The notes under the pieces: generated by a model | Seen by the model: the letters and a program-made list of their open reading frames with translations, nothing else | The model's database searches: none | Told to the model about the DNA's origin: nothing | Program-made: the position numbers and the translations under genes | Part shown: positions 1 to 58,250 of the stretch, piece by piece | How the letters are laid out: every line of letters begins with the position of its first letter | How positions within the stretch are numbered: the stretch's first letter is position 1 | NCBI GenBank assembly: GCA_964596325.1 | Contig: CAZQSQ010000002.1 | Coordinates: 10,820 to 74,819, forward strand | Source: an uncultured Candidatus Saccharibacteria bacterium | GTDB lineage: Bacteria > Patescibacteriota > Minisyncoccia > Minisyncoccales > JAGOPM01 | Reading direction: 5' to 3' | DNA length: 64,000 bases

Positions 1-434
1 AAGAATTAGCGGCTTTTTCGGCTGATAAGCAGGTGGAGATATTTTTCGCCAAACACAATGGGAAGATCGTTTCCGGCGCGATTATTATTTACTGGCAAAA
101 AACCGCCTATTACCACCAAGGCGCCTCGGATAATTCCGGTACCCCGTCCAAGTCGGGCGCTTCCTATTTATTGCAATGGCAGATTATCAAACGCGCCAAA
201 GAGTTGGGGTGCACGGCTTATAATTTTTGGGGTATTGTCCCGCAAATGCGCCGCTTGGAAGATCTTAATAGCCGTAAATTTAAGAATCATCCTTGGTATG
301 GGTTATCCTTATTCAAAATGGGCTTTGGCGGAGGGTGCACTGAGTATATGCCCACGATGAATAAGCCGATCGGGGTTTTTAGCTGGCTATCTTTCCTTTA
401 TGAAAAGCTGGAACGAATTAAAAAAAGGTTATAA
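1..434 (+). CDS. FemAB-family peptidoglycan peptide-bridge aminoacyltransferase, C-terminal part; the 5' end lies outside the window
   Basis: The frame is open from position 3 with no stop. The C-terminal sequence (GIVPQ..FKMGFGG, YNFWGI) resembles the acyl-tRNA-dependent FemX/MurM family. Stop at 432-434. Confidence 0.55.
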   Translation, partial: ELAAFSADKQVEIFFAKHNGKIVSGAIIIYWQKTAYYHQGASDNSGTPSKSGASYLLQWQIIKRAKELGCTAYNFWGIVPQMRRLEDLNSRKFKNHPWYGLSLFKMGFGGGCTEYMPTMNKPIGVFSWLSFLYEKLERIKKRL

Positions 435-440
435 ATTACC

Positions 441-1355
441 GTGGCAAACGTAAAATTGCGCTCTAAACATAAAATCCGCAAACCCAAGCCTCTTTACGCG
501 ACGGCGGCCTTTCGGCTCGGCACGCTTAGTGTTATTTTATTGGTTGGCTCCATTTACTGCATTTTTTTCTTTGATTATTTTAAGATAAAAAATGTGAAAA
601 TCGAAGGTATCCAAAAAATTTCCGCCCAAGAGATACAAAACCAAGTTTGGGAAATTTTGAATGCCAAGGCCGCAATGCCGCAAAACGGAATATTCACCGT
701 TCCGGGCGCCCAAATAACCAAACAGCTGAAAGAACGTTTTCCGGCCGCCCAAAGCGTGTCGGTTGCAAAAAGTTTACCCGCGACAATCGTGATAAAAATC
801 ACGGAGCGGCAGCCTTTGGCCCTTTGGTGCCCCTGCGAAATCCCCAGCGACAGCCTTTTGCCTTCCTACACCTCCAGCACAGCCACCTCAAGCTTGGCTA
901 ATTTCAGCGATTTTCGAACCTTTTTCGCGAAACAGAACTGCCATACAGCGGATAATTTTGATTGCTATTTAGTGGATAAGGATGGCATTAAATTCGAAAA
1001 CTCTCACGAATTTCCGTTTCGGATTGTGGCAGCCAAAAATTCCGCCGCCCTTGGCCAGACGGCTATCGAGGGTAATATTTTGACAACTATTCTAAAGATC
1101 AAGGAAAAAATCAGCCAAAAAATATCGGCCAGCTGCGACCTCGCCTACATTTATTCTCCGGCTCAAATAAATTTTCGGCTTGACGGTTACTGGTGGGCGT
1201 ATTTCAACCCCAAAAAGGATATCGATTGGCAGATAAATGCCTTATCGGCTGTTTTGGAGAAAAAACTCAGCCAGCAAGAGAAGGAAAAACTCGAATACAT
1301 TGATTTGCGCTTCGAAAATATTTCCGTGGTCAGCAAGCCGGAAAACAACAAATAA
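441..1355 (+). CDS. ftsQ: Cell division protein FtsQ/DivIB-like (N-terminal TM helix plus POTRA-like region)
   Basis: N-terminal basic segment followed by a TM helix. A POTRA-like stretch (VKIEGIQKIS..ATIVIKITERQPLALW) is present. The gene sits next to a Fem-family gene. Confidence 0.6.
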   Translation: MANVKLRSKHKIRKPKPLYATAAFRLGTLSVILLVGSIYCIFFFDYFKIKNVKIEGIQKISAQEIQNQVWEILNAKAAMPQNGIFTVPGAQITKQLKERFPAAQSVSVAKSLPATIVIKITERQPLALWCPCEIPSDSLLPSYTSSTATSSLANFSDFRTFFAKQNCHTADNFDCYLVDKDGIKFENSHEFPFRIVAAKNSAALGQTAIEGNILTTILKIKEKISQKISASCDLAYIYSPAQINFRLDGYWWAYFNPKKDIDWQINALSAVLEKKLSQQEKEKLEYIDLRFENISVVSKPENNK

Positions 1356-6592: not shown

Positions 6593-7651
6593 GTGTCGAA
6601 GGACTACTACAATATTTTGGGAGTGAGTAAGACTGCCTCGCAAGACGAAATTAAGAAAGCCTATTATAATCTCGCTCACCAGCACCATCCGGATAAGGGC
6701 GGCAGCGCGGAAAAATTCAAAGAAATACACGAAGCGTATCAGGTGCTTTCTGATCCGCAGAAACGCGCCACCTATGATCAGTATGGCGAAATTCCCCAAA
6801 ATCAGGGCTTTGGCGGTTGGGGCCAGGGCGGTTTTACGGAAACTGATTTTGACTTCGGGGGCTTTGGAGATATTTTCGAAGAGTTCTTTGGCGGATATGC
6901 CGGCAATCAAAGAGGCGGCCGCCGCGGATCCGACATCCAAGCCGATTTTGAGCTCACATTAGAGGAGGCATTTTATCCCCAGCATAAAGCCATAAAAGTA
7001 GAAAAGGTTTCCGCTTGCCCCAAGTGTTCGGGCAGCGGGGCTGACCCGGCTTTTGGCATGGAGAGATGCTCAACTTGCGGCGGTTCGGGCGTAGCCCAGA
7101 AAGTTATCCGCACGCCATTTGGCAATGCGGCAACCAGAATTACTTGCCCGGAGTGCCATGGCCAAGGGCAAAAGCCTAAGAAAAAATGCTCTGAATGCCG
7201 CGGGGAAGGCAATGTGCGCCGCACCGAAACAATCGAATTTGATATTCCCGGAGGTATTGATTCCAATAATGTCATAACAATTCGGGGTAAGGGCAATGCC
7301 GGCAAACAAGGCGCCCCGGCCGGAGATTTCCATGCTAGAATTTTTGTTAAACCCAACCCGAATTTCCGCCGGCAAAACGCCGACCTCTATTCGACTATTG
7401 CGATCCCGATGACCAAGGCTGCTCTAGGGGGTGATGCGGAAATCAAAACAATCGAAGGGAAAAATTTATTGTTAAAAATCCCTACCGGCACGCAGCCCGG
7501 AAAAGTGTTCAAAATTTCCGAACGCGGCATGCCAAAATTGCGCGGCAATGGCCGGGGGGATCTCTATGTGGAAGTTGTAGTTAAGGTGCCGACCAAGCTG
7601 TCTAAAGATCAAAAACGGTTATTGGAAGAAATGGCTCTGGAGGAATTGTAA
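6593..7651 (+). CDS. dnaJ: Co-chaperone DnaJ (J domain, G/F region, four CxxCxGxG zinc-finger repeats)
   Basis: HPD motif (HQHHPDKGG), a Gly/Phe-rich linker and four CxxC(x)G motifs. The start is probably GTG. Confidence 0.95.
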
Positions 7652-7710
7652 GATTATTCTCTTGACTGTATAATCTCGGACTGCGTCTTCTCCTTCTGGG
7701 CAAACAAAAA

Positions 7711-7738
7711 AACCGCAAAATGCGGTTGTTTTGTTTGG
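7711..7738 (+). terminator. Intrinsic terminator after dnaJ (aaccgca-aaa-tgcggtt plus gttttgtttgg)
   Basis: 7-bp perfect stem with a T-rich tail about 60 nt after the dnaJ stop. Confidence 0.6.
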
Positions 7739-7838
7739 TGCCCCCGGAAGGGCCACTTCGTGGCATACAAGAAGTTCTAAAGCTCATTTCATTCGCTTTG
7801 AACTTCTAATAAATCGTCCCATCTGCTCGGGTCCTTTT
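7736..7838 (-). other. tRNA-like 3'-end fragment / unassigned structured RNA. On the minus strand it ends ...CCTTCCGGGGGCA-CCA, sharing 14 nt with the tRNA-Lys 3' end
   Basis: The last 14 nt before an encoded CCA are identical to the T-stem-3' plus acceptor-3' strands of the adjacent tRNA-Lys. No T-loop or acceptor 5' strand could be folded. An internal 13-bp hairpin (AGAAGTTC..GAACTTCT) and a GCCAC-GAAG-GTGGC hairpin are present. The plus strand ends in a T6 run. Confidence 0.3.
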
Positions 7839-7849
7839 TTCTTCCGAAT

Positions 7850-7882
7850 ATATAAAAAAGACGGAAAAATCCGTCTTTTTTA
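7850..7882. terminator. Hairpin with flanking A/T runs (aaaaagacgga-aaaa-tccgtcttttt) between tRNA-Lys and the tRNA-like fragment
   Basis: Perfect 7-bp inverted repeat flanked by A6 on one side and T6 on the other, so it could terminate in either direction. Confidence 0.5.
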
Positions 7883-7886
7883 TATG

Positions 7887-7957
7887 TGCCCCCGGAAGGA
7901 ATCGGACCCTCGTCAACGGCTTAAAAGGCCGCTGCTCTACCATTGAGCTACGGGGGC
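7887..7957 (-). tRNA. tRNA-Lys (anticodon TTT), CCA not encoded
   Basis: The reverse complement GCCCCCGTAGCTCAATGGTAGAGCAGCGGCCTTTTAAGCCGTTGACGAGGGTCCGATTCCTTCCGGGGGCA folds as a cloverleaf: 7-bp acceptor stem GCCCCCG/CGGGGGC, D arm GCTC/GAGC, anticodon stem GCGGC/GCCGT with loop CTTTTAA, T arm GAGGG/CCTTC. The T-loop TCCGATT is slightly atypical (C at position 55). Confidence 0.85.
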
Positions 7958-7971
7958 TAAACAACTTTTGT

Positions 7972-8000
7972 ATTTTATTATAAATCAGCAAAAATGTCAA
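7972..8000 (-). promoter_or_regulatory. Sigma70-like promoter for tRNA-Lys (TTGACA-17-TAAAAT on the minus strand)
   Basis: On the minus strand, TTGACA (plus 7995-8000) and TAAAAT (plus 7972-7977) lie about 15 nt upstream of the tRNA 5' end. Confidence 0.4.
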
Positions 8001-8094
8001 CGTATTAGGCGTGTGGATACGTATGATTTTCGTTATATTGCACATTAATACCAATTTGTTAAAATGGCCTAGGTGATAAAGCCTGTTTTATTTT

Positions 8095-9297
8095 ATGGAT
8101 CAGAATACAAAAAATAATCTCCGGAAGTGGTTGACCGTTATTGCCATAATCGGTTTGGCCTTTTGGGGCGGAATGAAATTCCAACAATATCAAAACCCGC
8201 CGCCGAGCAAAATGCCCGTGGATGCGGATTTTTCTATTGTCTGGGATGTTTGGAATCAGTTAGAAAATAAATATGTCGGCAGCTTGGATAAAGAAAAAAT
8301 GGTTTATGGAGCGGCTAAGGGCTTAACTGCCGCCTTAGAAGACCCTTACACGGTCTTTTTGGAACCAGAGATGGCCAAAGCCCTCAATGAAGATATCTCC
8401 GGAAAATTTGAAGGAGTTGGTATGGTTTTGGATGTCAAAGACAGCCAACTGGTCGTGGTTTCGCCGATTAAGGGCACGCCAGCCTATAAAGCCGGGGTCA
8501 AAGCCGGAGACAAAATCCTTAAAATCAATGGCACCTCCACCCAGGATATCCAGCTTGATCAAGCTGTTAAATTTATCCGCGGGCCCAAGGGAACTAAGAT
8601 TACGATAACGATTTTGCGCGGCGCCCTGGATGCCAAAAACATCAAGGAGATTGAGCTTACCCGCGATGTAATCAATGTGCCCTCGGTAGAGCTGGAATAT
8701 AAGAAAAATAAAAATAATGAGGAGATTGCCGTTATTAAAGTTACCCAGTTCCAAGACAATACCGTGCAGGAATTTGAAAAAATTCTGCAAGAGGTAATGC
8801 TTAAAAAATCAAAAAGAATTATCATTGATTTGCGCAATAACCCCGGTGGGCTTTTAGACCAAGCCCAAGCCGTCGCGCAATACTTCCTCAAATCTGGCGA
8901 TCCGATTGTTTACGAGGGCAATAGCAAAATAATGCCCGAAGTCCCATATATATCGCAGATTGATGGCCCGTTCCGCGGTTATCCGTTGGTTGTTTTAATT
9001 AACCAAGGCTCGGCCTCGGGCGCTGAAATTTTGGCCGCGGCTTTAAGTGAAAATGGTGCTGCCAAATTGGTTGGCGAAAATTCCTTTGGCAAAGGCTCGG
9101 TGCAGCTGCCCCAAATGCTACGCAGCAAAAGCATGCTCAAAGTCACTATCGCGCAATGGATGACCCCCAAGCGCAACATCATCGACAAAAAAGGAATCAA
9201 ACCCGATATCGAGGTAAAGATTACCGAGGAAGACGTTAAAAATGAGAAAGACCCCCAGATGGAAAAAGCTATTGAAATTGTTTCGGAAATGCAATAA
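8095..9297 (+). CDS. ctpA: Carboxyl-terminal processing protease (peptidase S41, Ctp/Prc family) with a PDZ domain
   Basis: N-terminal TM anchor, a PDZ-like region (GVKAGDKILKINGTST) and an S41 catalytic region (GSASGAEILAAAL..GKGSVQ). Confidence 0.85.
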   Translation: MDQNTKNNLRKWLTVIAIIGLAFWGGMKFQQYQNPPPSKMPVDADFSIVWDVWNQLENKYVGSLDKEKMVYGAAKGLTAALEDPYTVFLEPEMAKALNEDISGKFEGVGMVLDVKDSQLVVVSPIKGTPAYKAGVKAGDKILKINGTSTQDIQLDQAVKFIRGPKGTKITITILRGALDAKNIKEIELTRDVINVPSVELEYKKNKNNEEIAVIKVTQFQDNTVQEFEKILQEVMLKKSKRIIIDLRNNPGGLLDQAQAVAQYFLKSGDPIVYEGNSKIMPEVPYISQIDGPFRGYPLVVLINQGSASGAEILAAALSENGAAKLVGENSFGKGSVQLPQMLRSKSMLKVTIAQWMTPKRNIIDKKGIKPDIEVKITEEDVKNEKDPQMEKAIEIVSEMQ

Positions 9298-15141: not shown

Positions 15142-16302
15142 TTACGAAAGTAGAGAATAAATATCCGAGGCGATTATTTGGGCGGCGTTAATCTTGGCAA
15201 ATTCTTTGGCAGCCCGGCTCATTTGTTCCCGTTTAGCTGAATCATTAGCGATAACCCGGATTTGTTCCAAAAATAAATTGGGCGTGAAGTTCCCCTCCTC
15301 CATAATTGTTGCCGCTCCGGCGCGGGAATAAATAAAAGCATTCATAGACTGGTGGTTCTGAGCGGATTCAGGCAAAGGAATCAAAATACTAGGCTTGCCG
15401 GCTTTGGCGATTTCAAAAATACTGCCAGAACCGGCCCGGCTGATAACAACATCGGCGGCCGCCAAGGCATTGGCATACTGCGCATCATCCAAAAAGCCGG
15501 CCAAATGATAGTATTTGCATAAATTTTCCGGCATTAAGCGCTCACACATTTGCAAATATTGTTTGATATTAGCCGTACCGCACTGATGGATAACTTCAAA
15601 CTCGAGCAAAATTTGGTCCAAGACATTGAGCACCATGTCATTGAACCTTTGCGAGCCTTGAGAGCCGCCAACAATCAGAACTATCGGCTTCTCAAAACTC
15701 AAAGAAAACATTTGCCCGGCCGTGCCCTTATTGCCCATGAGCAATGATTCTCTGACCGGATTGCCCACCAAAGTGGTTTTCTGAGGCGGAAACCATAATT
15801 TCTTTTGCACGAAAGAAATATAAATTTTATCGGCAAAAGTCCCTATCAGGCGATTGGCAGCCCCGGGAATGGAATCAGACTCATGGAGATAAACTTTTTT
15901 ATAAAGCAGCCAACCGGCCAATGAGGCTGGCACCGCCCCATAACCTCCTTTGCAAAAAATCAGCTTAATGGAAAATAAATTAAACAAAATCCAAAAATAA
16001 GCCTGAATAAGGCCGAGAGGAATTCGAAAAACTATATCGATAAAATTATTAAAAACATCCAAAACACCTGCCGTCCGGCGGAATTTCCCAGAGGAAATAT
16101 TTACAACCTTGATCCCCTCCTCAAGTAACAAATAATCTAATTCACCCTTTGGGCCCAAAAATACATATTCCAGCGTATCGTAAACCACGCCTTTTTTGGT
16201 TTGCTTGGCAATGGTCTGCTCGTATTTTTTTAACTCGCGGACAATGGCAATAATGGGAATGATATGCCCGCCAGAGCCGCCGCCCGCAAAAACAATTTTC
16301 AT
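15142..16302 (-). CDS. murG: Undecaprenyldiphospho-muramoylpentapeptide beta-N-acetylglucosaminyltransferase MurG
   Basis: MKIVFAGGGSGGHIIP and a C-terminal GT-B domain. Start set at the internal Met because the 52-codon extension overlaps ftsW. Confidence 0.9.
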   Translation of the reverse strand: MKIVFAGGGSGGHIIPIIAIVRELKKYEQTIAKQTKKGVVYDTLEYVFLGPKGELDYLLLEEGIKVVNISSGKFRRTAGVLDVFNNFIDIVFRIPLGLIQAYFWILFNLFSIKLIFCKGGYGAVPASLAGWLLYKKVYLHESDSIPGAANRLIGTFADKIYISFVQKKLWFPPQKTTLVGNPVRESLLMGNKGTAGQMFSLSFEKPIVLIVGGSQGSQRFNDMVLNVLDQILLEFEVIHQCGTANIKQYLQMCERLMPENLCKYYHLAGFLDDAQYANALAAADVVISRAGSGSIFEIAKAGKPSILIPLPESAQNHQSMNAFIYSRAGAATIMEEGNFTPNLFLEQIRVIANDSAKREQMSRAAKEFAKINAAQIIASDIYSLLS

Positions 16303-17390
16303 GTTTGGGATTTTGAAATATTTAATATTACGCCACACGCCGTCAGAACCAAAAGTAAAGCCGTGCCCCCGGCACTCATAAAAGGCAACGGTAAACCCGT
16401 GACCGGCAAAAATCCGATTGAAGAAAAAATATGGATAAAGGCCTGAATGCCGATCCAAGAAGTAATCCCAGCAGAGAGCATTTTACTGAAAGTATCGCGC
16501 GAATGGATGGCAATGCTTATTCCCTGCCAAATGAACCATACGTATAGGGCAACCACGCATAGGGCCCCGAAAAATCCCGTTTCCTCGGCAATAATGGCAA
16601 AAATAGAATCAGTGGCGGCCTGCGGCACTCCACCATACTTTTGGCGGCTCATATTCAAGCCGACCCCGGTAACGCCCCCCGAACCCACGGTAATCATTAA
16701 TTGTTTTTGATGGTAACCCACGCTGGAGGGATCAGAATCGTTTGTAATCAGAGCCTTAATACGGGCAAAACGATAAGCTTCAGTAAAAGCCAAAAAGGAA
16801 ATCAAGATTCCGATACAACAAAAAATAACGGCAATATGTTTAAGCTTGGCCTCGGAAAACAAGTAAATCACGCCGATTGAAAACATCGTAACAATAAGAG
16901 TACTCAAATCTTTTTGCAAAATAATCGGCAAAGCCGCGGCTAAGGCAATGCCCAAAAAAATAAAAGAATCTTTCAGTTTTTTGACCCGGCGGATGCTAAA
17001 ATAATACGAAAAATAAATTATTAACGCCAGTTTGAAAAACTCAGATGGCTGAATAGTTGTAAAATGCAAATTAATCCAACGGGTAGCACCCCCGGCGCTC
17101 ATACCTATGACTGGCAAAAAAACCGCAAACATCAAAGCATAACATGCCAAAGCAAAATGGAAAGCGTACTTTTTCAAAATATCCAAATTACGCAGCCCTA
17201 AAATTGTGAACATTATCACCAAGCCAGGAATAATAGCAAAAACCAGCTGCTTAATGATTACCGAATAAGGATTAGCAGTCCCGCGGATCGAAGCCGAGGC
17301 TGTGGAGATGCCGGCCAAAATCGCAAAACCCAAAATCAAAAGCAGTAGGATACAGCTTAAAAAAGAAATGGTGGCTTGTGGTAATTTCAT
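16299..17390 (-). CDS. ftsW: SEDS-family peptidoglycan polymerase FtsW/RodA
   Basis: Ten-TM SEDS architecture. Lies between murD and murG in a dcw-type gene order. Confidence 0.88.
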   Translation of the reverse strand: MKLPQATISFLSCILLLLILGFAILAGISTASASIRGTANPYSVIIKQLVFAIIPGLVIMFTILGLRNLDILKKYAFHFALACYALMFAVFLPVIGMSAGGATRWINLHFTTIQPSEFFKLALIIYFSYYFSIRRVKKLKDSFIFLGIALAAALPIILQKDLSTLIVTMFSIGVIYLFSEAKLKHIAVIFCCIGILISFLAFTEAYRFARIKALITNDSDPSSVGYHQKQLMITVGSGGVTGVGLNMSRQKYGGVPQAATDSIFAIIAEETGFFGALCVVALYVWFIWQGISIAIHSRDTFSKMLSAGITSWIGIQAFIHIFSSIGFLPVTGLPLPFMSAGGTALLLVLTACGVILNISKSQT

Positions 17391-18724
17391 TGGTATTTTA
17401 TGATCTCGTTCTTAAATTGCTCGCCGCGATCCCTATAATCCCTGAATAATCCGAAACTGGGCGCGGCGCAGGAAAGCAAACAGGACATTCCTTGGGGCGT
17501 GTGCTTGATGCAAAATTCTACCGCCTGGCGCATATTGCTGGCAAAAATATAATCGGGCAGTGGGATTTCGCGTTTCTTGCATAAATCCCCTATCGCAGAA
17601 AGCATAAATTTTCCCGACTCGGGGAAAAAGGCGATTTTTTTGATATTGGCCTCAGTGATAGCAAGGGCTAACTGATCATATTTAATTTTTCGATCGTAAC
17701 CCCCCAAAATTATCGAGCCGACTTTGCCGTTAAGCGACTTGATGGCGGCAATCGTGGCCTCCGGGATAGTCGCCAAGCTATCATCGTAAAAATCAATGCC
17801 ATGATAGTTGCCCAGATACTGCATCCGATGTTGGAGGGGTTTGAAACTTTTAAGCGCCTTTTCAATTTTCTCCACCTCTAAACGCAAAGCCAAAGCGACC
17901 ACAATGGCGGCTTGGATATTTTCCCGATAAATTTCTGGCGATATCGGCAAATCGTTTTCCTCGACAAAATTAGAAATTACTATCTGGTTAAAATCAATGG
18001 CGCTGGCCTTGGTTTTTTTGACAAGCTTGGTGATTAATTCCGAATTGCCGTTATAAACAAAAATCCCGTTCTTTTTCTGCCATAAGACAATATTGGCTTT
18101 GGCCTTAAAATATTCGTTGAAATCCTTATAGTAATCCAAATGCTCCGGGTAAATATTAAGAAAAACAGAAATGTCCGGGCTGATTTCCAAGCGATCTAAT
18201 TGATGTGAAGACATTTCGTAGACGCACCATTGCCCGGCACGCAATTTTGGTAAAATGGAAAGCGGCGGGATGCCGATATTGCCCAAAAGCTGCGTTTTGA
18301 ATCCGGCGGTTTTCAGAATGTGATAAATGAGCGAAGCGGTAGTGCTTTTACCTTTTGTACCCGTTACCCCGATAACCCAGGCCGGACAATTTTTCAAAAA
18401 TATTTCAGTTTCCGAGGTGACTTTACAGCCCCGAGGCAACAGTTTCTGAATTTTGCGCAAAGGTAATCCCGGGGTTTTTATAACCACATCGATCCCTTCA
18501 AAAGCCAAAGGGAAATCCGTGCCCAAAAATAATTTAATTTTGGCTTTGCGCGCTTTTTTCAAAAGCCGCCGCCCCTCCAAATCAAAATCATCAAAGGCCT
18601 TTTCATCAGCAATGGCGACTTTACGCGAAATCTTCGTCTCAAAAATCCACTTTAAGGTTTCCCGGCCTTCCCGGCCGAAACCCAAGACTAATATTTTTTT
18701 CTGTTTCAAGTCGGCGATTTTCAT
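17387..18724 (-). CDS. murD: UDP-N-acetylmuramoylalanine--D-glutamate ligase MurD
   Basis: Mur ligase P-loop VIGVTGTKGKSTT and the typical three-domain length. 445 aa. Confidence 0.9.
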   Translation of the reverse strand: MKIADLKQKKILVLGFGREGRETLKWIFETKISRKVAIADEKAFDDFDLEGRRLLKKARKAKIKLFLGTDFPLAFEGIDVVIKTPGLPLRKIQKLLPRGCKVTSETEIFLKNCPAWVIGVTGTKGKSTTASLIYHILKTAGFKTQLLGNIGIPPLSILPKLRAGQWCVYEMSSHQLDRLEISPDISVFLNIYPEHLDYYKDFNEYFKAKANIVLWQKKNGIFVYNGNSELITKLVKKTKASAIDFNQIVISNFVEENDLPISPEIYRENIQAAIVVALALRLEVEKIEKALKSFKPLQHRMQYLGNYHGIDFYDDSLATIPEATIAAIKSLNGKVGSIILGGYDRKIKYDQLALAITEANIKKIAFFPESGKFMLSAIGDLCKKREIPLPDYIFASNMRQAVEFCIKHTPQGMSCLLSCAAPSFGLFRDYRDRGEQFKNEIIKYQ

Positions 18725-20109
18725 AGCAAAGCCTTAAGACCGGCCAATAATTTTTTCGGCAAAAAATTCTTATGCAATTTGAATAATGCTTTTAATCGAA
18801 CTTCGGAAATCTTTTTCTTGGCCAATATTTCCTGGGCCCGTTTCAAGAGCGGCTGATTGGGCAGGGCATTTTCTCGATTATATTCCAAACTCAGTTTTAA
18901 CGCGGCCAAGGTTTCCAAACGCATCCCCACGCATTCCAAGGGCTTGCCTTTGACATACCCGCTAAGCGCTTCCAAATCCCCTCGCAAGGCGCTGTTTTCA
19001 AATAAATCGCGACCAAAAATTTCTACGGCCTTTTCTTTGCCTAAAAACGGATAAAGTATCAGATAGGCAAATAGGCACTTACTGCAATTACCGCACCAAG
19101 AAAATGTCGGTTTTTTTGTGCCCGAATAGGAGCGCTGAGCCACATTGCAGCTTAAAAATATTTTATTATACTGCCCAAGCGAAGAAAAAATTTGTGCGCA
19201 CTTTATCTCATTTAGGGGCCGGATGATACTGAAATATTCCAAGTCGCGGGAAATATTTTCCACCAAATAACGGCGAAAATCCTTTTCAAATGCCAGACTC
19301 TTGGAATACTGGTGGTTTATCTTTTTTCCTCGCCAAATCAGCGATTCTTCATTGGCACTGTTTTCATTGGCGACAACAAAGCCTTTATAGCCCCCCAAAA
19401 CCACGCATAATGCGCCCAAAAAAGCCAAATAGGCGGAAAACGGGGTATGGCCGTTCAAAAATCCCTGCTGGTTTAATTCCAAAAGCTTGGGACAAATTTT
19501 GCGTTCAATAACAATCTGGTCTTGCGCCCCGCTGATTTTAGCCATTTCCAAACTCGAAGGAATCGGGTTAAGCATCAAGACAGAAAAATCTTCCGAGGCC
19601 TTTTTGAACACCTCTATCCCCACAGCCGAATCCTTTCCCCCGCCAAGGCCAAAAAGATAATTGCGAGTCCGAAAATATTTTGACGGCACGGATTTTCCTT
19701 TGGAAAAAGAAAAATCTACAAAATTTTTCTTCGAAAAATCGACAATATTGTTCTCATAAAAATATTGCCCCATTCCCTGCAAAAGCAGTTTTTTCCAAAA
19801 GGCAGCCTGACTTCGGCTGAGCGTCCCTTTTTCGATGACAATCTTTGGACTGCAAAAGGCTTTCCAATAAGAAAATGATTCGATTAAGCCTAAGTTAAAA
19901 ACCAAAGAGTCGATAAGCGGTTTATTGGCTGCTTGTGTGGCTAAGGCCGCAAGGCCGGCAATATTTTTTATCCGCACCTGCGGAAAAAATTCATATTCCC
20001 CAGCGGCAAAAGCAAAATCAATAACAAAATCGTTGTTCTCATCCACCCGCCAAGAATAATCACGATAATGAAAGGTCTTAAATTTTTTTTGCAGCTCTTG
20101 GTATGTCAT
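18721..20109 (-). CDS. PP-loop (adenine-nucleotide alpha-hydrolase-like) ATPase with a C-terminal CxxCxxC cluster, inserted between mraY and murD
   Basis: LFGLGGGKDSAVG resembles the SGGxDS PP-loop, and SWCGNCSKC resembles the QueC/N-acetyl-sugar-amidotransferase zinc motif. The 463-aa protein has start and stop codons that both overlap the flanking mur genes. Confidence 0.6.
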   Translation of the reverse strand: MTYQELQKKFKTFHYRDYSWRVDENNDFVIDFAFAAGEYEFFPQVRIKNIAGLAALATQAANKPLIDSLVFNLGLIESFSYWKAFCSPKIVIEKGTLSRSQAAFWKKLLLQGMGQYFYENNIVDFSKKNFVDFSFSKGKSVPSKYFRTRNYLFGLGGGKDSAVGIEVFKKASEDFSVLMLNPIPSSLEMAKISGAQDQIVIERKICPKLLELNQQGFLNGHTPFSAYLAFLGALCVVLGGYKGFVVANENSANEESLIWRGKKINHQYSKSLAFEKDFRRYLVENISRDLEYFSIIRPLNEIKCAQIFSSLGQYNKIFLSCNVAQRSYSGTKKPTFSWCGNCSKCLFAYLILYPFLGKEKAVEIFGRDLFENSALRGDLEALSGYVKGKPLECVGMRLETLAALKLSLEYNRENALPNQPLLKRAQEILAKKKISEVRLKALFKLHKNFLPKKLLAGLKALL

Positions 20110-21173
20110 CTTAAAACAGCCAGGCGCGCGATAATGCCTAAAATGGCACAAATGACGCCAATGACCCAAAATCTCATCGTTACTTTATAGGGCGGCCATC
20201 CTTTGGCTTCATAATGCAAATGGATGGGCGCAGCCAGAAAAAACTTTTTCTTCAAAAACTTTTTGGAAAGTAATTGGATAATGACCGAAAGTGATTCCCA
20301 AACCAGCAAAAAGCCGATTAGCGGCAGATACATTACCGAGTTGGTAAAAAAGGCCACGACCGCCAAACTGGCGCACAAAGCCATGGAGCCGGTTTCCCCC
20401 ATATAAAATTTGGCCGGCGGGATATTAAACCACAAATAAGTCAAAAGCGAACCAAAAACCGCAAAGCAGAACGAGGCCAAATCATATTGATGGAACATCC
20501 AGGCAATCAAGCCGTAGGCGCCAAACATCGAAAGGAAAGAGCCGGCCGCCAAACCGTCGATACCGTCAATAACCCCGCCGCTATAAGTGGCCATCATCAC
20601 GACAATGAAAAACAAGATATAAAATATTCCGAAATTGACATCTCCGACAAAAGGAATATAAACTGTGCTCCAACCGAGCTTGTAATAGCACCACCACCCG
20701 CCGACAAAACCCATAAATGCGAACAAAAGCAAGCGATAGCGCAGGCTCAAGCCGCCGGCGATATAATCGCCTTTGCCCTTAACCTGCAGGAGGTCATCAA
20801 CCAAGCCGACAATGGCCGCCACCACAAGCGCAAAAAAAGGTATCCAAGTTTGGTCGCGAGTGAAAAAATCCAAACTGGCCAGCCCGGGAACGCCGAACTT
20901 GGCACAAATATGCAAAATAAAGGCCACAACCAAAGGTGGAAGCCAAATAAGCACACCGCCCATGCGCGGAGTTTTAATTTCGCCCTCCCCATGCAGCTTT
21001 TGGAAATTAGAAACATCCTGCCCGTCGATAGCTTTGGTGCGCACGCTCTTGCGCCAAAACTTATTTTTATAAAGAAACTCGGTCACGATCGGGACCAAGA
21101 TTTGCGCGGTTAAAAAACTGAAAGCCGCGATGGTTAAAACCTTAAAGGCTGCAATGGTGTTAATAAAAGCCAT
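20106..21173 (-). CDS. mraY: Phospho-N-acetylmuramoyl-pentapeptide transferase MraY
   Basis: Ten-TM protein with conserved MraY Asp and His loops. 355 aa. Confidence 0.92.
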   Translation of the reverse strand: MAFINTIAAFKVLTIAAFSFLTAQILVPIVTEFLYKNKFWRKSVRTKAIDGQDVSNFQKLHGEGEIKTPRMGGVLIWLPPLVVAFILHICAKFGVPGLASLDFFTRDQTWIPFFALVVAAIVGLVDDLLQVKGKGDYIAGGLSLRYRLLLFAFMGFVGGWWCYYKLGWSTVYIPFVGDVNFGIFYILFFIVVMMATYSGGVIDGIDGLAAGSFLSMFGAYGLIAWMFHQYDLASFCFAVFGSLLTYLWFNIPPAKFYMGETGSMALCASLAVVAFFTNSVMYLPLIGFLLVWESLSVIIQLLSKKFLKKKFFLAAPIHLHYEAKGWPPYKVTMRFWVIGVICAILGIIARLAVLR

Positions 21174-22507
21174 TATTGTTTCTTAGTTTTTCTTTCTTGG
21201 ACCGTGGAGAGCCTTATATCAATGCGCTCCATATCGCGCGGGAAAAGCGAAGCATTGGCCACATTATCCAGCCCCAAAAATTGCTTAGTCACCCGCTCAA
21301 TGCCAACGGCAAACCCGCCCTCCGGCGGCATGCCATACTTGAAAGCCTCCAAATACATTTCAAAATCTTCGGGCTTATTGCCCCACTTTTTGATATTGGC
21401 CAGAAGCTCCTCGTAATCATTAATGCGTTGCCCGCCGGTTACGACTTCTAAGCCGCGGAAAAGCAAATCAAAGCCCAAAGTGTATTGAGGGTTTTCCGGA
21501 TCAGGATAAGTGTAGAACGGGCGCTTTTTGGTTGGAAAATGCGTTATGAAAATAAAATCGGAACCATATTCTTTTTTGGCCCATTCGCAAATTTTGCGCT
21601 CATCCTCAGGCGCCAAATCCGGCTCCTCGGTGGAAACGCCTAAAAGTTTTTGTGCGTCGCGCAACTTAATTTTGGGAAATGGCTTGCTTAAATCTAAATC
21701 TTGCACATTATAAAGTTTGCATGCTTCCTTATCCTCTAAAGCCTTACTCATCATGGCCTTTAAGGTGCCCTCGCACATAACCATGATATCTTCCCAAGAA
21801 TCAATAAAACCCATTTCCGCATCAAGGCTCACATACTCGCTTAAGTGCCGAGAAGTAGCGTGCGGCTCAGCGCGGTAGGCCTTAGTAACTGTCATGACGC
21901 GTTCGTATACGCCCACCAGCATCTGTTTGTGAAATTGCGGGCTTTGCGCTAAGTAAGCATCGTAATCGTAATAATCAACATGGAAAACCTCGCTGCCCCC
22001 TTCGGTCGCCACACCCACTAAGCCAGAAGCTTGGAATTCAGTAAAATCGTTTGCCTTAAGATATTCGCGGAAGCCGTCAATTAGTTTTTCTTGTACCTTA
22101 AAAATCGCTTTCAGCTCTGGCGCGCGCAAAGAAAATGGGCGGTGGTCCAAAACTACTGGCATGCTGACTTCCTTGATATTTTTTAACTCAAAAGGCAAAA
22201 CTTCAGATTTGGCTAAGACAACAACTTCACTAGCCTGCATTTCGACGCCTCCAGTAGCAGAATCCTTATTGATTAATTTTTCGGGCCGCTTAGCGATTTT
22301 GCCTTTTATCTGCAAAACCCATTGCTCTTTGATGCCCTCGGGCAGTGCCATATTTTTCAATTCGCAAACCACCTGCAAAGCGCCCGTTCTATCGCCCAAA
22401 TCCAAGAAAACCAGCTTGCCCAAATCGCGGCGGGTCAAAACCCAGCCCTGGACCAGAACTTCCTCGCCGACTTTCCCGATTGTTTCCTTGATTAATATTC
22501 GTGGCAT
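21173..22507 (-). CDS. aspS: Aspartate--tRNA ligase, archaeal/eukaryal type (probably non-discriminating)
   Basis: Class II motifs. The C-terminus FKYGMPPEGGFAVGIERV..FPRDMERI matches archaeal-type AspRS (SFRYGMPPHAGWGLGLERL..FPRD). 444 aa. Confidence 0.8.
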   Translation of the reverse strand: MPRILIKETIGKVGEEVLVQGWVLTRRDLGKLVFLDLGDRTGALQVVCELKNMALPEGIKEQWVLQIKGKIAKRPEKLINKDSATGGVEMQASEVVVLAKSEVLPFELKNIKEVSMPVVLDHRPFSLRAPELKAIFKVQEKLIDGFREYLKANDFTEFQASGLVGVATEGGSEVFHVDYYDYDAYLAQSPQFHKQMLVGVYERVMTVTKAYRAEPHATSRHLSEYVSLDAEMGFIDSWEDIMVMCEGTLKAMMSKALEDKEACKLYNVQDLDLSKPFPKIKLRDAQKLLGVSTEEPDLAPEDERKICEWAKKEYGSDFIFITHFPTKKRPFYTYPDPENPQYTLGFDLLFRGLEVVTGGQRINDYEELLANIKKWGNKPEDFEMYLEAFKYGMPPEGGFAVGIERVTKQFLGLDNVANASLFPRDMERIDIRLSTVQERKTKKQ

Positions 22508-22508
22508 T

Positions 22509-23519
22509 TTATTTAAGCAAATTTTTATAGTCCAATTTCATGGCTTGCTTGACCAAGTCCAAAGTTTCCTGCGCTTCAGCTCTAGCGCGCTTATTGCTGG
22601 TTGCCAAAATATCAGCAATCAGCTTATCGTTCTTTTCAAATTTTGCGCGGCGCTCGCGGATAGGATCTAAAAACTCATTAATCCTCTTGGCAATTTCTTT
22701 TTTGCATTCCACGCAGCCGATTTTGCCTTCGCGGCACTGCCGTGCCCTTTGCTCGACTAAATCTTTGGCAAAAACTTGGTAATATTTATAAATATTGCAA
22801 ATCTCAGGATCTCCCGGATCGTCCTTTTTTATTTTTTTCGGATCGGTCACGGCTTTGGAAATTTTTTCTTCCACTTCCTTGGCACTATCGGATAAATAAA
22901 TGGCATTGCCCAAAGACTTGCTCATTTTGCGTCCATCGGGGCCCAAAAGCCTTGGCGTACTACCCACGATTGGCTCCGGTTCGGTAAAAATTTCTTGGAA
23001 GTTAGAATTAAAATATCTGGCAATTTCGCGTGTTTGCTCGACATGGGGCAGCTGGTCTTCGCCCACGGGCACCACATCGGCCCGCACACATAAAATATCA
23101 GCGGCTTGGATAATGGGCCAACCAATATAGCCGAAAGTCGGGCCCTCCACGCCTTTATTTTTGATTTCATCCTTGATGGTTGGGTTGCGCACTACGCGGG
23201 ACATTTTAACCATCATGGAAAATATCAAATTAAGCTCGGCAATTTGGGGCACCTGCGACTCCACAAAAATACTGCACTTCTCCGGATCGATGCCCACAGA
23301 AAGGTAATCCAAAACCAAATCGGAAATATTTTTTTCAAAGGCAGCCGTGTTCTCGACATTATCGGTCAAATATTCATAATCAGCGATTATAAAAAAGCAG
23401 TCATAGTCGTTTTGCAGCTTGAGCCTGTTTTCCAGAGAACCAACATAGTGGCCCAAGTGAAGGCGGCCGCTGGGCCGATCACCTGTTAAGATGCGTTTTT
23501 TATTTGCGCTTTTTGGCAT
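22509..23519 (-). CDS. trpS: Tryptophan--tRNA ligase
   Basis: GDRPSGRLHLGHY HIGH region and KMSKSLGNAI. 336 aa. Confidence 0.9.
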   Translation of the reverse strand: MPKSANKKRILTGDRPSGRLHLGHYVGSLENRLKLQNDYDCFFIIADYEYLTDNVENTAAFEKNISDLVLDYLSVGIDPEKCSIFVESQVPQIAELNLIFSMMVKMSRVVRNPTIKDEIKNKGVEGPTFGYIGWPIIQAADILCVRADVVPVGEDQLPHVEQTREIARYFNSNFQEIFTEPEPIVGSTPRLLGPDGRKMSKSLGNAIYLSDSAKEVEEKISKAVTDPKKIKKDDPGDPEICNIYKYYQVFAKDLVEQRARQCREGKIGCVECKKEIAKRINEFLDPIRERRAKFEKNDKLIADILATSNKRARAEAQETLDLVKQAMKLDYKNLLK

Positions 23520-25845
23520 GTTTTTTGGCTGATTTTTTTGCTTTGGGCTTACTCTTTACAACCTTCTTAACTTGTTTTTTAACAGGCTTTTTAGCCACTT
23601 TCTTAGGTTGAGCCTTTCTTAAAATGGGCTTTTTAACCGGTTTAACGGCCTTTGCTGCGGGCTTTGGGGCCAAGTCGGCCACTTGCGCTACCTGTTGCAC
23701 TGTAGGCCATTTTTCGATAATTAAAGCCTTAGCTTTATTCTCAATGGGCAGCTTTTGGTAAAGCGCTTCAGTCACAAACGGCATAAAGGGATGTAAAAGC
23801 GCCAAGGAGTTTTTCAAGACGTAAAGCAAAATCTTCAACGTATTTTCTTTTTCTTCTTCGCTTTTGGCATTTTTTATCTGCTCTTTGGATTTCTCAATAT
23901 AGATATCGCAGAACTGGTGCCAAAAATATTCGTAAATATCACGGATGGCCGTGCCAAAAGCAAATTTAGAAATATTTTCCGTGGTTGATTCGATAAGGGC
24001 GTCGAGCTTACTTAAAATATCTTTATCAGCTTCTGTTTTGGCGACTGGTTTTTGCTTAATATCATAAGTTTTGCCTTCCGGAATATCCATGATGGCAAAA
24101 CGGGTCGCGTTCCAAACTTTGTTGGCAAATTTTTTGCCTGCAATAATAGCATCTTCACTGAAATGGATATCTTGCAAATCAGTGGCCTGCCAAGCCAAAC
24201 CCATACGCGTGGCATCAGCCCCGTAATTTTCCACCAAACCAATCGGGTCAATACCTGTACCCAAAGACTTGCTCATGCGCTTGCCATCCTTGGTCAAAAC
24301 CGTGGCATGGATTATGACATTTTTGAAAGGTTCGCTTCCGGTAAACTCCAATCCAGAAAATATCATCCGACTCACCCATAAATTAATAATATCGCGGGCC
24401 GTGGAAAGCGTGCTGGTGGGATAAAAATCCTGCAAATCTTTGGTGCTCTCAGGCCAGCCAAAGACCGCAAACGGCCACAGGGCGGAAGAAAACCAAGTGT
24501 CAAAAACATCTTCGACTTGCTTGGGCTCGCAGTTCCCGCACTTAGGGCACTTGCTTGGCACCTCCGTCGCGCAAAAAAATTCTTGGCTTTCTTGGCACTG
24601 CCAAATGGGCATCTGGTGTCCCCACCAAAGCTGGCGCGAAATGCACCAATCTTGGATATTTTCCATCCAATTAAACATGAGCTTTTCCCAGCTCTTTGGG
24701 TGGAATTTTACCTTGCCGCTTTTAACCGAAGCTAAAGCTGCCTCTGCCAAAGGCTTCATTTTTATAAACCATTGCTCGGAGGGCAGCGGCTCAATCACGG
24801 TATGGCATCTGGCGCAATGCGGCTTTTGGTGCACATGATCTTCAATCTTCACGAGTAAATCGAGCTGCTTTAGATCTTCCACAATAATCTCTCGCGCTTG
24901 GGCGGCTTTAAGACCTTGGTATTTGGGCGGAACATTTTTATTCAAACGGCCAAACTGGTCCATTATCTCAATCATCTCCAACTTATGGCGCACACCCATT
25001 TGATAATCAGTGAAATCGTGGAAAGGCGTGACCTTAACCATGCCTGTCCCAAATTCTTTGTCCACAGAATCATCAGCAATCACGGGCAATTCTTTATTAA
25101 CCAAAGGCAAAATAACAGTCTTGCCAATTAAATGCTTATAGCGGGCGTCACCGGGATTAACGGCCACGGCCGTGTCCCCTAACATGGTTTCCGGCCTGGT
25201 AGTGGCCACAATAACAAACTCCTTACCGTCTTTGGTAATCGGATATTTAATATGCCAAAGTTTTCCCTTTTCCTCTTCGCTTTCCACTTCCAAATCCGAA
25301 AGAGAAGTTTGGCAGCGAGTGCACCAATTAATAACGCGCTTGCCCCGATAAACCAAACCTTTGTTGTAATAGGCCGCAAAAGCCGCCTGCACAGCCTTGA
25401 CGTAGCCCTCATCCATGGTAAAGCGGGTGCGGCTCCAGTCGCAGGAAGCGCCCATGCGCCTAATTTGGTTCAAAATTATATCGCCGTATTTATTTTTCCA
25501 CTCCCAAACTTTCTTAACGAATTCTTCGCGACCAATTTGGTGGCGAGTGATATTTTGTTTGCGCAATTCCTTTTCAACGACATTTTGGGTCGCAATGCCA
25601 GCATGATCAATGCCCGGAACCCAAACTGTCCGGTATCCCTGCATGCGTTTGCTGCGAATGAGGACATCTTGAATAACCAAATTGAGGGCATGTCCCATAT
25701 GCAAATTACCCGTGACATTAGGCGGTGGTAAGGTGATGCTATATGTTTTTTTCCCAGTATCCGAAGGCTGGAAGAACTTTGAGCTCTCCCAAAAATTATA
25801 AATTTCCCCCTCGTTTTTCTTGGGGTCGTATTGCGGATCTATCAT
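23500..25845 (-). CDS. valS: Valine--tRNA ligase with an unusual lysine-rich C-terminal tail
   Basis: PPPNVTGNLHMGHA HIGH and KMSKSLGTGIDP motifs plus an editing domain. It ends in a roughly 55-aa K/P/A/V-rich tail rather than the usual coiled coil. It overlaps the trpS start by 20 nt. Confidence 0.9.
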   Translation of the reverse strand: MIDPQYDPKKNEGEIYNFWESSKFFQPSDTGKKTYSITLPPPNVTGNLHMGHALNLVIQDVLIRSKRMQGYRTVWVPGIDHAGIATQNVVEKELRKQNITRHQIGREEFVKKVWEWKNKYGDIILNQIRRMGASCDWSRTRFTMDEGYVKAVQAAFAAYYNKGLVYRGKRVINWCTRCQTSLSDLEVESEEEKGKLWHIKYPITKDGKEFVIVATTRPETMLGDTAVAVNPGDARYKHLIGKTVILPLVNKELPVIADDSVDKEFGTGMVKVTPFHDFTDYQMGVRHKLEMIEIMDQFGRLNKNVPPKYQGLKAAQAREIIVEDLKQLDLLVKIEDHVHQKPHCARCHTVIEPLPSEQWFIKMKPLAEAALASVKSGKVKFHPKSWEKLMFNWMENIQDWCISRQLWWGHQMPIWQCQESQEFFCATEVPSKCPKCGNCEPKQVEDVFDTWFSSALWPFAVFGWPESTKDLQDFYPTSTLSTARDIINLWVSRMIFSGLEFTGSEPFKNVIIHATVLTKDGKRMSKSLGTGIDPIGLVENYGADATRMGLAWQATDLQDIHFSEDAIIAGKKFANKVWNATRFAIMDIPEGKTYDIKQKPVAKTEADKDILSKLDALIESTTENISKFAFGTAIRDIYEYFWHQFCDIYIEKSKEQIKNAKSEEEKENTLKILLYVLKNSLALLHPFMPFVTEALYQKLPIENKAKALIIEKWPTVQQVAQVADLAPKPAAKAVKPVKKPILRKAQPKKVAKKPVKKQVKKVVKSKPKAKKSAKKHAKKRK

Positions 25846-44629: not shown

Positions 44630-45183
44630 TCTGCCCGGTTAATTTTCAAATAAAAACCGATTTTGTTGATAATGACGTGTAAAATAAAAGTGAAGACCAG
44701 TAAAATTACCCAAATCCGGATATCGGCCAGCTTGCCGATAAGAAAAAATACGAAGCCTACACCAATGACATAATTGATTTGGTCCCAAATAATCCAGCTT
44801 TCCCCGGGCTCCAAATTAATCCGTCTCTTAATAAAGCTGAAAAGCAAATCGCCGCAGAGCGCGCCTAAAGGAATAAGAATGCCCAACCATAAAGGTTCTT
44901 TGCTGTAATCAAGAATGGAGATGGCTTGGAAAAAATCAGCGACGTAAAGCAGCTTTTGCACAACATAAATCAGAAAACCGACCAAAGTCCCTAGAATAAG
45001 TCCGCGCCAAGTTTTATGGTCTCCAAAAATATCATTGCCCCGGAATTTCCTTCCCCCATCAACGGGCTTGTTCAAAAATTCCGCAATACCTAAAAAACGC
45101 AAAACCGGCGGCGTCATATTGGCAAAATACGCCGGCAAAAAAAAGTATAAACACTGGACGATTAATTGGGAGGAAAAATTCAT
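44623..45183 (-). CDS. CDP-archaeol synthase-like (DUF46/CarS family) CTP-dependent membrane protein
   Basis: Five or six TM helices and a GDHKTWRG motif like the CarS family. 186 aa. Confidence 0.55.
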   Translation of the reverse strand: MNFSSQLIVQCLYFFLPAYFANMTPPVLRFLGIAEFLNKPVDGGRKFRGNDIFGDHKTWRGLILGTLVGFLIYVVQKLLYVADFFQAISILDYSKEPLWLGILIPLGALCGDLLFSFIKRRINLEPGESWIIWDQINYVIGVGFVFFLIGKLADIRIWVILLVFTFILHVIINKIGFYLKINRAEW

Positions 45184-50481: not shown

Positions 50482-50483
50482 AT

Positions 50484-51263: not shown

Positions 51264-51273
51264 CTTTCCTTTT

Positions 51274-54591: not shown

Positions 54592-54592
54592 A

Positions 54593-56053: not shown

Positions 56054-56068
56054 ATTTTTGAAAAATTT

Positions 56069-58111: not shown

Positions 58112-58149
58112 GCCTGCTTTAATTATAGTATTTTGTTGCCTTAAAAGAA

Positions 58150-58250
58150 GTGGAAAACCCTGCCGCGTGCGAAGTCGCGTATAGCTCCGCACGCGACAAG
58201 CTATACGAGGGAAGCCGCGTGCGAGTATGGCGAGCTATACGCGGCTATTC
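58150..58250. repeat. GC-rich intergenic element with nested inverted and direct repeats (CGCGTATAGCT / AGCTATACGCG; GCCGCGTGCGA x2)
   Basis: CGCGTATAGCT occurs once and its reverse complement twice. GCCGCGTGCGA is directly repeated about 52 nt apart. CCGCGTGCG and CGCACGCGG can pair. Local GC is far above the window average. Lies between the helicase-nuclease stop and the protease-gene start. Confidence 0.4.

Follow-up and report, generated by a model that had tools for sequence, protein, structure and literature searches.

The minus strand of a 64,000-nt stretch of contig CAZQSQ010000002.1 (hereafter the window; positions are given within it, and these 64 kb are the part of the genome that was read) carries a block of cell-wall genes in which an additional gene is present between mraY and a murD-family ligase gene. 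The product of this additional gene belongs to the MurL epimerase family, and it is this gene and its ligase partner that are described here. The genes of the block are:

20106–21173, minus strand: mraY (TIGR00445, E=4e-49; Pfam Glycos_transf_4)
18721–20109, minus strand: murL homologue (NF041275 match; MurL_N and MurL_epimerase_C on the identical protein; AlphaFold2 model with a mean predicted local distance difference test score, pLDDT, of 95)
17387–18724, minus strand: murD-family ligase gene (TIGR01087, 288 bits, above cut-off)
16299–17390, minus strand: ftsW, ATGA-coupled to murD and murG
15142–16302, minus strand: murG, with which the coupled mraY-murL-murD-ftsW-murG block ends

The murL open reading frame (ORF) runs from an ATG at 20109–20107 to a TGA at 18723–18721; a preliminary description of this DNA had delimited the same ORF, and its figure of 463 aa is corrected here to 462 aa plus the stop codon. 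The coupling of the extra gene to both of its neighbours, to which that description had also drawn attention, is evident at the junctions. The first of these is a 4-nt ATGA overlap in which the mraY TGA (20108–20106) shares letters with the murL ATG, and the second is an identical overlap in which the murD ATG (18724–18722) shares letters with the murL TGA. ATGA overlaps recur at murD/ftsW and ftsW/murG, and the junction between mraY and the aspartyl-tRNA synthetase gene (AspRS) upstream of it is TAATG. Because successive junctions overlap, the genes for the valyl-, tryptophanyl- and aspartyl-tRNA synthetases and the cell-wall genes (ValRS-TrpRS-AspRS-mraY-murL-murD-ftsW-murG) form one tightly coupled minus-strand unit. 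The mraY product scores 167.7 bits against TIGR00445, which does not reach the curated cut-off of 192, and its Glycos_transf_4 match is above threshold. Ahead of murL, murD, ftsW and murG there is no evident Shine-Dalgarno-like sequence, in keeping with coupling by way of the ATGA overlaps. The region in which the cell-wall block is joined to aminoacyl-tRNA synthetase genes (ValRS, TrpRS and AspRS upstream, GltX downstream) spans 15142–25845 on the minus strand, and ftsZ is 27 kb from the block; the division and cell wall (dcw) cluster of this genome is broken up.

murL is a real gene, a chance ORF being excluded by its homologues, its structural model and its pattern of substitution. One identical protein (P0001) is present in public data together with 7626 homologues listed at E≤1e-3, and an exhaustive HMMER pass gave 2354 clusters at 50% identity, 1074 of them at E≤1e-30. 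The AlphaFold2 model has a predicted TM-score (pTM) of 0.93, and the ratio of nonsynonymous to synonymous substitution rates (dN/dS) is 0.09 against an orthologue of 89% identity, neighbouring genes giving values of 0.005–0.044.

The sole NCBIfam match of the protein is to NF041275 (MurL), with E=5.5e-77 and 259 bits, aa 30–460 aligning with positions 26–445 of the 447 in the profile, whose name is 'UDP-N-acetyl-alpha-D-muramoyl-L-alanyl-L-glutamate epimerase'. Precomputed Pfam annotations place PF26299 (MurL_N) and PF26298 (MurL_epimerase_C) on the identical protein and on every listed homologue. A local Pfam-A scan gave nothing at E≤1, but the copy of Pfam that was used holds neither PF26298 nor PF26299, and because the MurL models are newer than that copy this empty result is an artefact of library version and no sign of novelty. 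Across 390 aa the window protein is 31.5% identical (E=4e-57) to MurL of Xanthomonas sacchari, where a replicon in a plasmid collection carries a PGAP-annotated murL followed by an overlapping murD. Among the homologues one JGI record is named as the epimerase, two JGI records are named 7-cyano-7-deazaguanine synthase, and the NCBI records shown are named hypothetical protein. A phmmer search with the single MurL sequence against PDB chains returned only noise. The family match refutes the earlier supposition that this is an uncharacterised protein responsible for an undescribed step in peptidoglycan synthesis: the MurL/MurD2 pair is already known, and the window pair adds to it.

The pair is known from Xanthomonas oryzae, which lacks both glutamate racemase and D-amino-acid aminotransferase, and in which two adjacent genes complement an Escherichia coli D-Glu auxotroph (PMC8788868, PMC5808125). 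By experiment in homologues MurD2 ligates L-Glu, and the MurL reaction consumes one ATP with formation of AMP, depends on Mg2+ and proceeds in the L-to-D direction only (PMC8788868, PMC5808125). The discoverers proposed adenylation of the alpha-carboxyl and described MurL as lacking 'known conserved domains' (PMC8788868, PMC5808125). The only members with demonstrated activity are those of Xanthomonas, Micromonospora and Salinispora (PMC8788868). The published range comprises Xanthomonadales together with a few alphaproteobacterial and rare actinomycete members, and weak homologues are also recorded for cyanobacteria, one fungus and one amoeba (PMC8788868, PMC5808125). The pathway has been seen as limited to few genera and hence as a narrow-spectrum antibiotic target (PMC8788868).

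This 'few genera' picture (PMC8788868) does not fit the present data, with about 2,350 clusters at 50% identity and, in a scan of species-representative genomes, murL matches in at least 600 species-level genomes, 598 of the hits being confirmed. Synteny was read in the best 80 of the loci. These include Paceibacterota, 'Saccharibacteria' and Nealson-, Roizman-, Gottesman-, Curtiss-, Beckwith- and Daviesbacteria, all within the candidate phyla radiation (CPR), as well as many Bacteroidales/Lentimicrobium, Acidobacteriota and some actinomycetotal and proteobacterial metagenome-assembled genomes. There are three features of their arrangement. First, murD lies downstream of murL on the same strand in 70 of the 80 loci, and in five of the ten remaining loci the contig stops within 700 bp. 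Second, mraY is upstream of murL in 33 of the 41 CPR-type loci with room for it (within 300 bp in 29) and in only one of 35 non-CPR loci, and mraY-murL-murD-ftsW-murG is therefore the CPR layout; outside the CPR murL and murD form a stand-alone pair, as in Xanthomonas. The insertion in CPR dcw clusters, whose conservation had been put forward as a check, is thus conserved. The cultured CPR bacterium Minisyncoccus archaeiphilus PMX.108 (locus L012) has the mraY-murL-murD order of the window, and in Curtissbacteria the order is murB-murA-ddl-(mur ligase)-mraY-murL-murD-ftsW-murG-...-ftsA-...-ftsZ. Third, many database proteins of 800–1250 aa are fusions involving MurL, among them MurL-MurD (P0128, P0216 and P0133), MurD-MurL (P0134), MurE-MurL (P0154) and a triple fusion of MurL, MurD and an M20 amidohydrolase/carboxypeptidase (P0222), and fused ORFs are also present at loci L044, L059, L068, L073 and L084. 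Fusion of MurL to the enzyme that makes its proposed substrate (MurD) and to the one that uses its proposed product (MurE) is as the MurL reaction predicts.

Several variations on these arrangements were seen. The MurL-MurD-amidohydrolase protein may point to one more step connected with these two. In several Paceibacterota (L021, L016, L019, L023 and L031) a spacer of 0.5–3.9 kb of inserted DNA separates murL from murD, the strand being shared throughout; in a complete Nealsonbacteria genome (L021:6377-9784) this spacer holds a 302-aa ORF (7586–8494) with an N-terminal Cys-rich motif and a transposase-like look. The Pseudonocardia sp. plasmid pFRP1-2 (L090:3764-5158; also H3 and H4) carries a MurL-like gene with 29% identity and most motifs retained, annotated as hypothetical, with no murD adjoining it and a gene for a large WD40-repeat protein next to it. 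Because these plasmid copies lie away from murD, the MurL family may include members with other roles, and the Pseudonocardia protein is possibly a paralogue with another substrate.

When 82 homologues were aligned (CPR, Bacteroidota, Acidobacteriota and others), 68 positions proved to be conserved at 95% or more, of which 51 are identical in X. sacchari MurL, every motif included. The residues common to the family and to X. sacchari include G157-G158-K159-D160, R203, N219-G220-H221-x-P223, E249/S251, N265-H266-Q267-x-S269-K270, E275, S320-C321-N322, W338-C339-xx-C342-x-K344-C345 and K389-P390-xx-C393-V394-G395. G158, D160, C321, C339, C342 and C345 are invariant across the 82 homologues. Four of the motifs are located as follows:

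19627–19644, minus strand: GGGKDS, aa 156–161 (within FGLGGGKDSAV), the PP-loop and predicted ATP pyrophosphatase/adenylation site
19144–19152, minus strand: SCN, aa 320–322, with the invariant C321, first Cys of a putative four-Cys site
19075–19098, minus strand: WCGNCSKC, aa 338–345, which with C321 makes a C-x17-C-x2-C-x2-C motif
18925–18945, minus strand: KPLECVG, aa 389–395, with P390 and C393 invariant and K389, V394 and G395 conserved at 95% or more, all of them present in X. sacchari MurL

Within the PP-loop G157 and K159 are conserved at 95% or more, a variant SGGKDS being present in some members, and in the AlphaFold2 model the loop sits between a strand (149–154) and a helix (159–170). 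W338 and K344, like the three Cys of the same motif, are invariant in the 82 homologues and in X. sacchari MurL. The four Cys at 321, 339, 342 and 345 are a probable site for Zn (or Fe-S); a structural Zn is preferred, since the reviews, which report activity of the recombinant enzyme with ATP and Mg2+, name no further cofactor requirement. The fifth invariant Cys, C393, may be a catalytic acid/base, a candidacy proposed from its conservation.

The GLGGGKDSA segment had been taken in the preliminary description for a PP-loop, and three lines of evidence bear this out. First, GGGKDS occupies aa 156–161 as above. Second, a profile of 41 homologues matches the PP-loop of TtuA with E=1e-5 ('ilvpiGGGKDSavt' against 'ilvavSGGKDSavt'), MnmA following weakly. 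Third, when a domain-only model (aa 128–400, pLDDT 87.5) was compared with solved structures by Foldseek, all seven matches at E≤1e-3 were PP-loop enzymes (TtuA-type sulfurtransferases, 3k32 and YcfA), with E=2.9e-4 for TtuA and, for 3k32, a TM-score (TMt) of 0.50 and a root-mean-square deviation of 5.3; MnmA, argininosuccinate synthase and NAD+ synthetase came below this set. With the full-length model there was no Foldseek match at E≤1e-3 and PP-loop enzymes were intermixed with Rossmann dehydrogenases, the best by probability and TM-score being QueC, argininosuccinate synthetase, the PP-loop protein 3k32 and TtuA (for QueC 3bl5, probability 0.99, TMt 0.55 and E=0.03). An SGGxDS-type loop and a core fold that superposes are thus both found in the predicted structure, and membership of the PP-loop ATP pyrophosphatase (AANH) superfamily is confirmed at the superfamily level. 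The fold also fits the ATP-to-AMP stoichiometry reported for MurL in the literature.

Whether the protein is closer to any one PP-loop family is another matter. A QueC/amidotransferase-like Cys motif had been suggested, and of this the C...CxxCxxC pattern, which is that of the zinc site of QueC, stands, but the match to the QueC family does not: Pfam QueC gives nothing at E≤1, and hhalign of the MurL profile with the single E. coli QueC sets the Cys motif on TCY...GCGHCAAC with a probability of only 2.8%, which is not significant. Since the nearest solved structures are TtuA, MnmA, the QueC-like YcfA and QueC, and two JGI records carry the QueC name, the protein might be supposed to be a nucleoside- or tRNA-modifying enzyme that sits in the dcw operon by chance; yet these matches are at the superfamily level only (E about 3e-4, 12–17% identity), the N- and C-terminal domains are specific to MurL, and linkage and fusion to MurD and MurE extend across phyla. 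This makes a nucleoside- or tRNA-modifying role extremely unlikely, and both QueC-type and tRNA-thiolation functions were rejected on these grounds.

A second use of the PP-loop had been favoured at the outset, namely that the protein adenylates and then amidates a carboxylate of a UDP-MurNAc-peptide or of lipid II (on D-isoglutamate or meso-diaminopimelate) in the manner of AsnB1/LtsA or MurT/GatD. PP-loop adenylation followed by attack of NH3 is the chemistry of Asn synthetase, NAD synthetase and QueC, and the fold, the position in a cell-wall operon and the presence of NAD synthetase among the structural neighbours are all compatible with it. The profile searches, while supporting the PP-loop superfamily, give no match in Pfam to the Asn_synthase, QueC or GATase families even at E≤1; there is no glutaminase domain, the N-terminal domain being MurL_N, and MurL is the only NCBIfam assignment. 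Neither is there a GatD-like or other glutaminase gene among the window genes or the conserved neighbours at L001 and L003. Moreover, the characterised members of the family epimerise without a nitrogen donor, and a MurD2-type partner would leave an L-Glu in need of inversion. Amidation was accordingly rejected as highly unlikely, and of the earlier proposal it is the adenylation of a UDP-MurNAc-peptide carboxylate that most probably survives.

The partner ligase, which had been taken for an ordinary MurD, is itself atypical. E. coli MurD and Xanthomonas MurD2 differ by D182 to E197, K348 to R358, A414 to P433 and L416 to F435; the double change E197D/R358K turns MurD2 to D-Glu, and K319T makes E. 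coli MurD accept L-Glu (PMC8788868). Positions are given here in E. coli MurD numbering, and the numbering of the paper was checked to be gene numbering minus the initiator Met. The residues at positions 182/319/348/414/416/422 are:

E. coli MurD: D/K/K/A/L/F
X. sacchari MurD2: E/I/R/P/F/Y
window MurD (codons verified): E/L/R/P/F/Y

The codons of the specificity residues in the window, numbered as in its own MurD, are:

18143–18145, minus strand: E194
17774–17776, minus strand: L317
17690–17692, minus strand: R345
17459–17461, minus strand: P422
17453–17455, minus strand: F424

At five of the six discriminating positions the window MurD thus has the residue of X. sacchari MurD2, and both lack K319 (Leu and Ile, respectively). 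Where the residue could be aligned in MurL-linked MurDs, 68 of 72 have E182, all have R348 and none has K319. D182, K348 and K319 are found in E. coli MurD and in three of the four canonical MurDs of solved structure that were aligned (Thermotoga, Acinetobacter and Pseudomonas); the fourth, from Streptococcus, has T182, R348 and K319. By its specificity residues the window enzyme is a MurD2-type ligase, and use of L-Glu is predicted. TIGR01087 calls both it and Xanthomonas MurD2 D-Glu ligases, and automated names therefore cannot tell an L-Glu ligase from a D-Glu ligase.

Taken together, we propose that the window gene encodes a MurL epimerase that works together with the downstream MurD2-type ligase, the two genes lying in a dcw operon whose host is a Paceibacterota-like CPR bacterium, and we put the probability of this at about 0.8. 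Several points weigh against it. First, the 259 bits of the window protein are far under the curated equivalog cut-off of 700 bits for NF041275, a cut-off that is tuned to Xanthomonadales; ten further homologues from CPR and non-CPR genomes score 226–274 bits, and the cut-off delimits a Xanthomonadales subgroup and not the wider MurL family, but with a score below it, isofunctionality at 31% identity is a matter of prediction. Second, Arg at position 348 is found also in streptococcal D-Glu ligases, and in overall similarity the window MurD is nearer to the canonical D-Glu ligase of Thermotoga (165 bits) than it is to MurD2 of Xanthomonas (125 bits), which leaves the L-Glu assignment dependent on a small number of specificity positions. 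Third, the murI search and the family scans cover 64 kb of this genome, and absence of murI or of a D-amino-acid aminotransferase gene from the whole genome would go beyond them. Fourth, PMC11974145 cites Penalver et al. 2024, whose title reports that Ca. Saccharimonas aalborgensis, a member of the CPR, has D-glutamate racemase activity; this title apart, literature searches joining MurL/MurD2 or glutamate racemase with CPR or Patescibacteria gave nothing relevant. Because of this report the MurL route is not to be generalised to all CPR, and both routes to D-Glu may exist among them. Finally, there is no MurL structure in the PDB copy used and no detailed mechanism in the literature searched.

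Some of these points would also suit a different arrangement, in which the protein is a paralogue within the MurL family with another substrate or role (epimerising some other stem-peptide residue, acting on a lipid-linked or recycled muropeptide, or repairing mis-incorporated L-Glu) and its neighbour an ordinary D-Glu ligase fed by a racemase encoded elsewhere. The modest identity to Xanthomonas MurL and the sub-threshold NF041275 score, the unlinked MurL-like genes on Pseudonocardia plasmids, the title that reports a CPR racemase, and the overall proximity of the window MurD to that of Thermotoga all lean in this direction. Against it, all of the MurL motifs are kept, the partner has all four MurD2 specificity residues and lacks K319, pairing with murD is tight and fusion with MurD or MurE frequent, and the window holds one MurD and no MurI. 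No MurI homologue was found in the 64-kb window (phmmer --max, with noise only at E>3) or in the 80 loci, and there is no second MurD within the window; no D-amino-acid aminotransferase turned up in NCBIfam and Pfam scans of about 40 window ORFs, though no search was aimed at that enzyme. On balance we consider a paralogue of this kind improbable.

If the pair acts as a MurL epimerase and its MurD2-type ligase, the route would run as follows. The ligase would join L-Glu, instead of its D-enantiomer, to UDP-MurNAc-L-Ala. MurL would then bind ATP at its PP-loop and adenylate the alpha-carboxylate of the terminal L-Glu with release of pyrophosphate (PPi). Adenylation would acidify the C-alpha proton, and C-alpha could be inverted by an enzyme base, for which the invariant C393, H221 and K270 are candidates, or alternatively via an oxazolone-type intermediate formed with the Ala carbonyl. 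Water would free AMP and the D-Glu product, which MurE, MurF, MraY and MurG would process normally, and the D-Glu of peptidoglycan would be made with neither a free D-Glu pool nor a glutamate racemase. Three of these steps, the ligation of L-Glu, the continuation by MurE and the net MurL reaction, are experimental fact for homologues. To this the present computations contribute the MurL family membership, the PP-loop fold, the MurD2-type residues of the partner, and the conserved linkage and fusions; adenylation of the alpha-carboxyl at the PP-loop, release of PPi, the identity of the base, the structural Zn and the intermediate are what we infer.

A broader proposal follows the same lines: that MurD2/MurL is the main D-Glu route in much of Patescibacteria/CPR and in many Bacteroidales and Acidobacteriota, that in CPR it is embedded in the dcw cluster in place of canonical murD, and that MurL is a PP-loop enzyme resembling QueC, with a Cys4 metal site plus a conserved fifth Cys. 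We regard the chances of this whole proposal as about even. If true, it would offer the first framework, both structural and mechanistic, for understanding an ATP-driven peptide epimerase. The MurL and MurD2 assignments themselves correct a likely pair of mis-annotations in CPR, of MurL as 'hypothetical protein' and of its partner as 'D-glutamate ligase' through TIGR01087, and would explain how reduced CPR genomes make D-Glu-containing peptidoglycan without a racemase. The PP-loop assignment, the Cys4+1 pattern and the invariant polar residues offer targets for mutagenesis in an enzyme described as having no known conserved domains, and the prediction is testable in Minisyncoccus archaeiphilus, a cultured CPR bacterium with mraY-murL-murD. 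The main value is that an alternative D-Glu pathway appears far wider than the literature says and that the catalytic core of MurL is recognisable as a PP-loop.

Other parts of the window contain genes of interest for the cell envelope. A CarS-like protein of the CDP-archaeol synthase family (44623–45183, minus strand; Pfam E=6e-29; NCBIfam 138 bits, cut-off 148) is encoded directly upstream of, and overlapping, ftsZ (43262–44629), which puts a lipid enzyme family of archaeal type next to a bacterial division gene. At the window edge (33–434, plus strand) is the C-terminal part of a FemAB-family protein (the peptidoglycan interpeptide-bridge transferase family; Pfam E=2e-11), which suggests that the organism may build a branched stem peptide, and it is followed by a weak FtsQ-like gene (441–1355, plus strand). 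The minus strand at 46438–58192 holds a series of genes for predicted proteins of very large size (1347, 1105, 486 and 707 aa), with vWA-like regions in two and papain-family (Peptidase_C1) ends in two (E=5e-28 and 6e-23); these are possibly surface or secreted proteins that interact with a host.

The system most similar to that of the window is the MurL/MurD2 pair of Xanthomonas. MurL of X. oryzae (XOO_1319, with orthologues in Micromonospora and Salinispora) is homologous over its full length and has the same three-part architecture, and Xanthomonas and window MurL have in common the motifs GGGKDS, NGHxP, SNExS, NHQxSK, SCN, WCxxCxKC and KPxECVG; in both, murL is directly upstream of, and overlaps, a gene for a MurD2-type ligase. 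The two ligases likewise have E, R, P and F at 182/348/414/416, a residue other than Lys at 319 and Tyr at 422, in spite of an identity of 25.6%. The differences are in setting: window murL is not part of a stand-alone murL-murD2 pair but lies inside a dcw operon between mraY and murD-ftsW-murG, its MurD fills the canonical murD slot of the cluster, and its host is a Paceibacterota-like CPR bacterium, from a group outside the published distribution of MurL, with activity predicted from about 31% identity.

The remaining comparisons are with enzymes that resemble MurL in outcome, in chemistry or in fold. MurI is cofactor-independent (PMC6927343) and interconverts free L- and D-Glu. It and D-amino-acid aminotransferase have in common with MurL what they finally deliver, a D-Glu in the second position of the stem peptide, and there is no homology; unlike MurI, MurL works after ligation, spends ATP and is unidirectional. 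MurT/GatD and AsnB1/LtsA, like MurL, activate a stem-peptide carboxylate of a peptidoglycan precursor in an ATP-dependent manner, but they require a glutaminase domain or subunit and give an amide, neither of which is a feature of window MurL. MurT is a Mur-ligase-fold enzyme with acyl-phosphate chemistry. The PP-loop enzymes TtuA, MnmA, QueC/YcfA, argininosuccinate synthetase and NAD+ synthetase have, like MurL, a Rossmann-like core with (S/G)GGxDS after strand 1 and AMP-forming chemistry, and QueC has a Cys pattern like the C...CxxCxxC of MurL. MurL differs from them in lacking a family-level sequence match and in having additional MurL_N and C-terminal helical domains, and the predicted substrate of MurL is a UDP-sugar dipeptide and the predicted outcome stereoinversion with hydrolysis, in place of the transfer of N or S.

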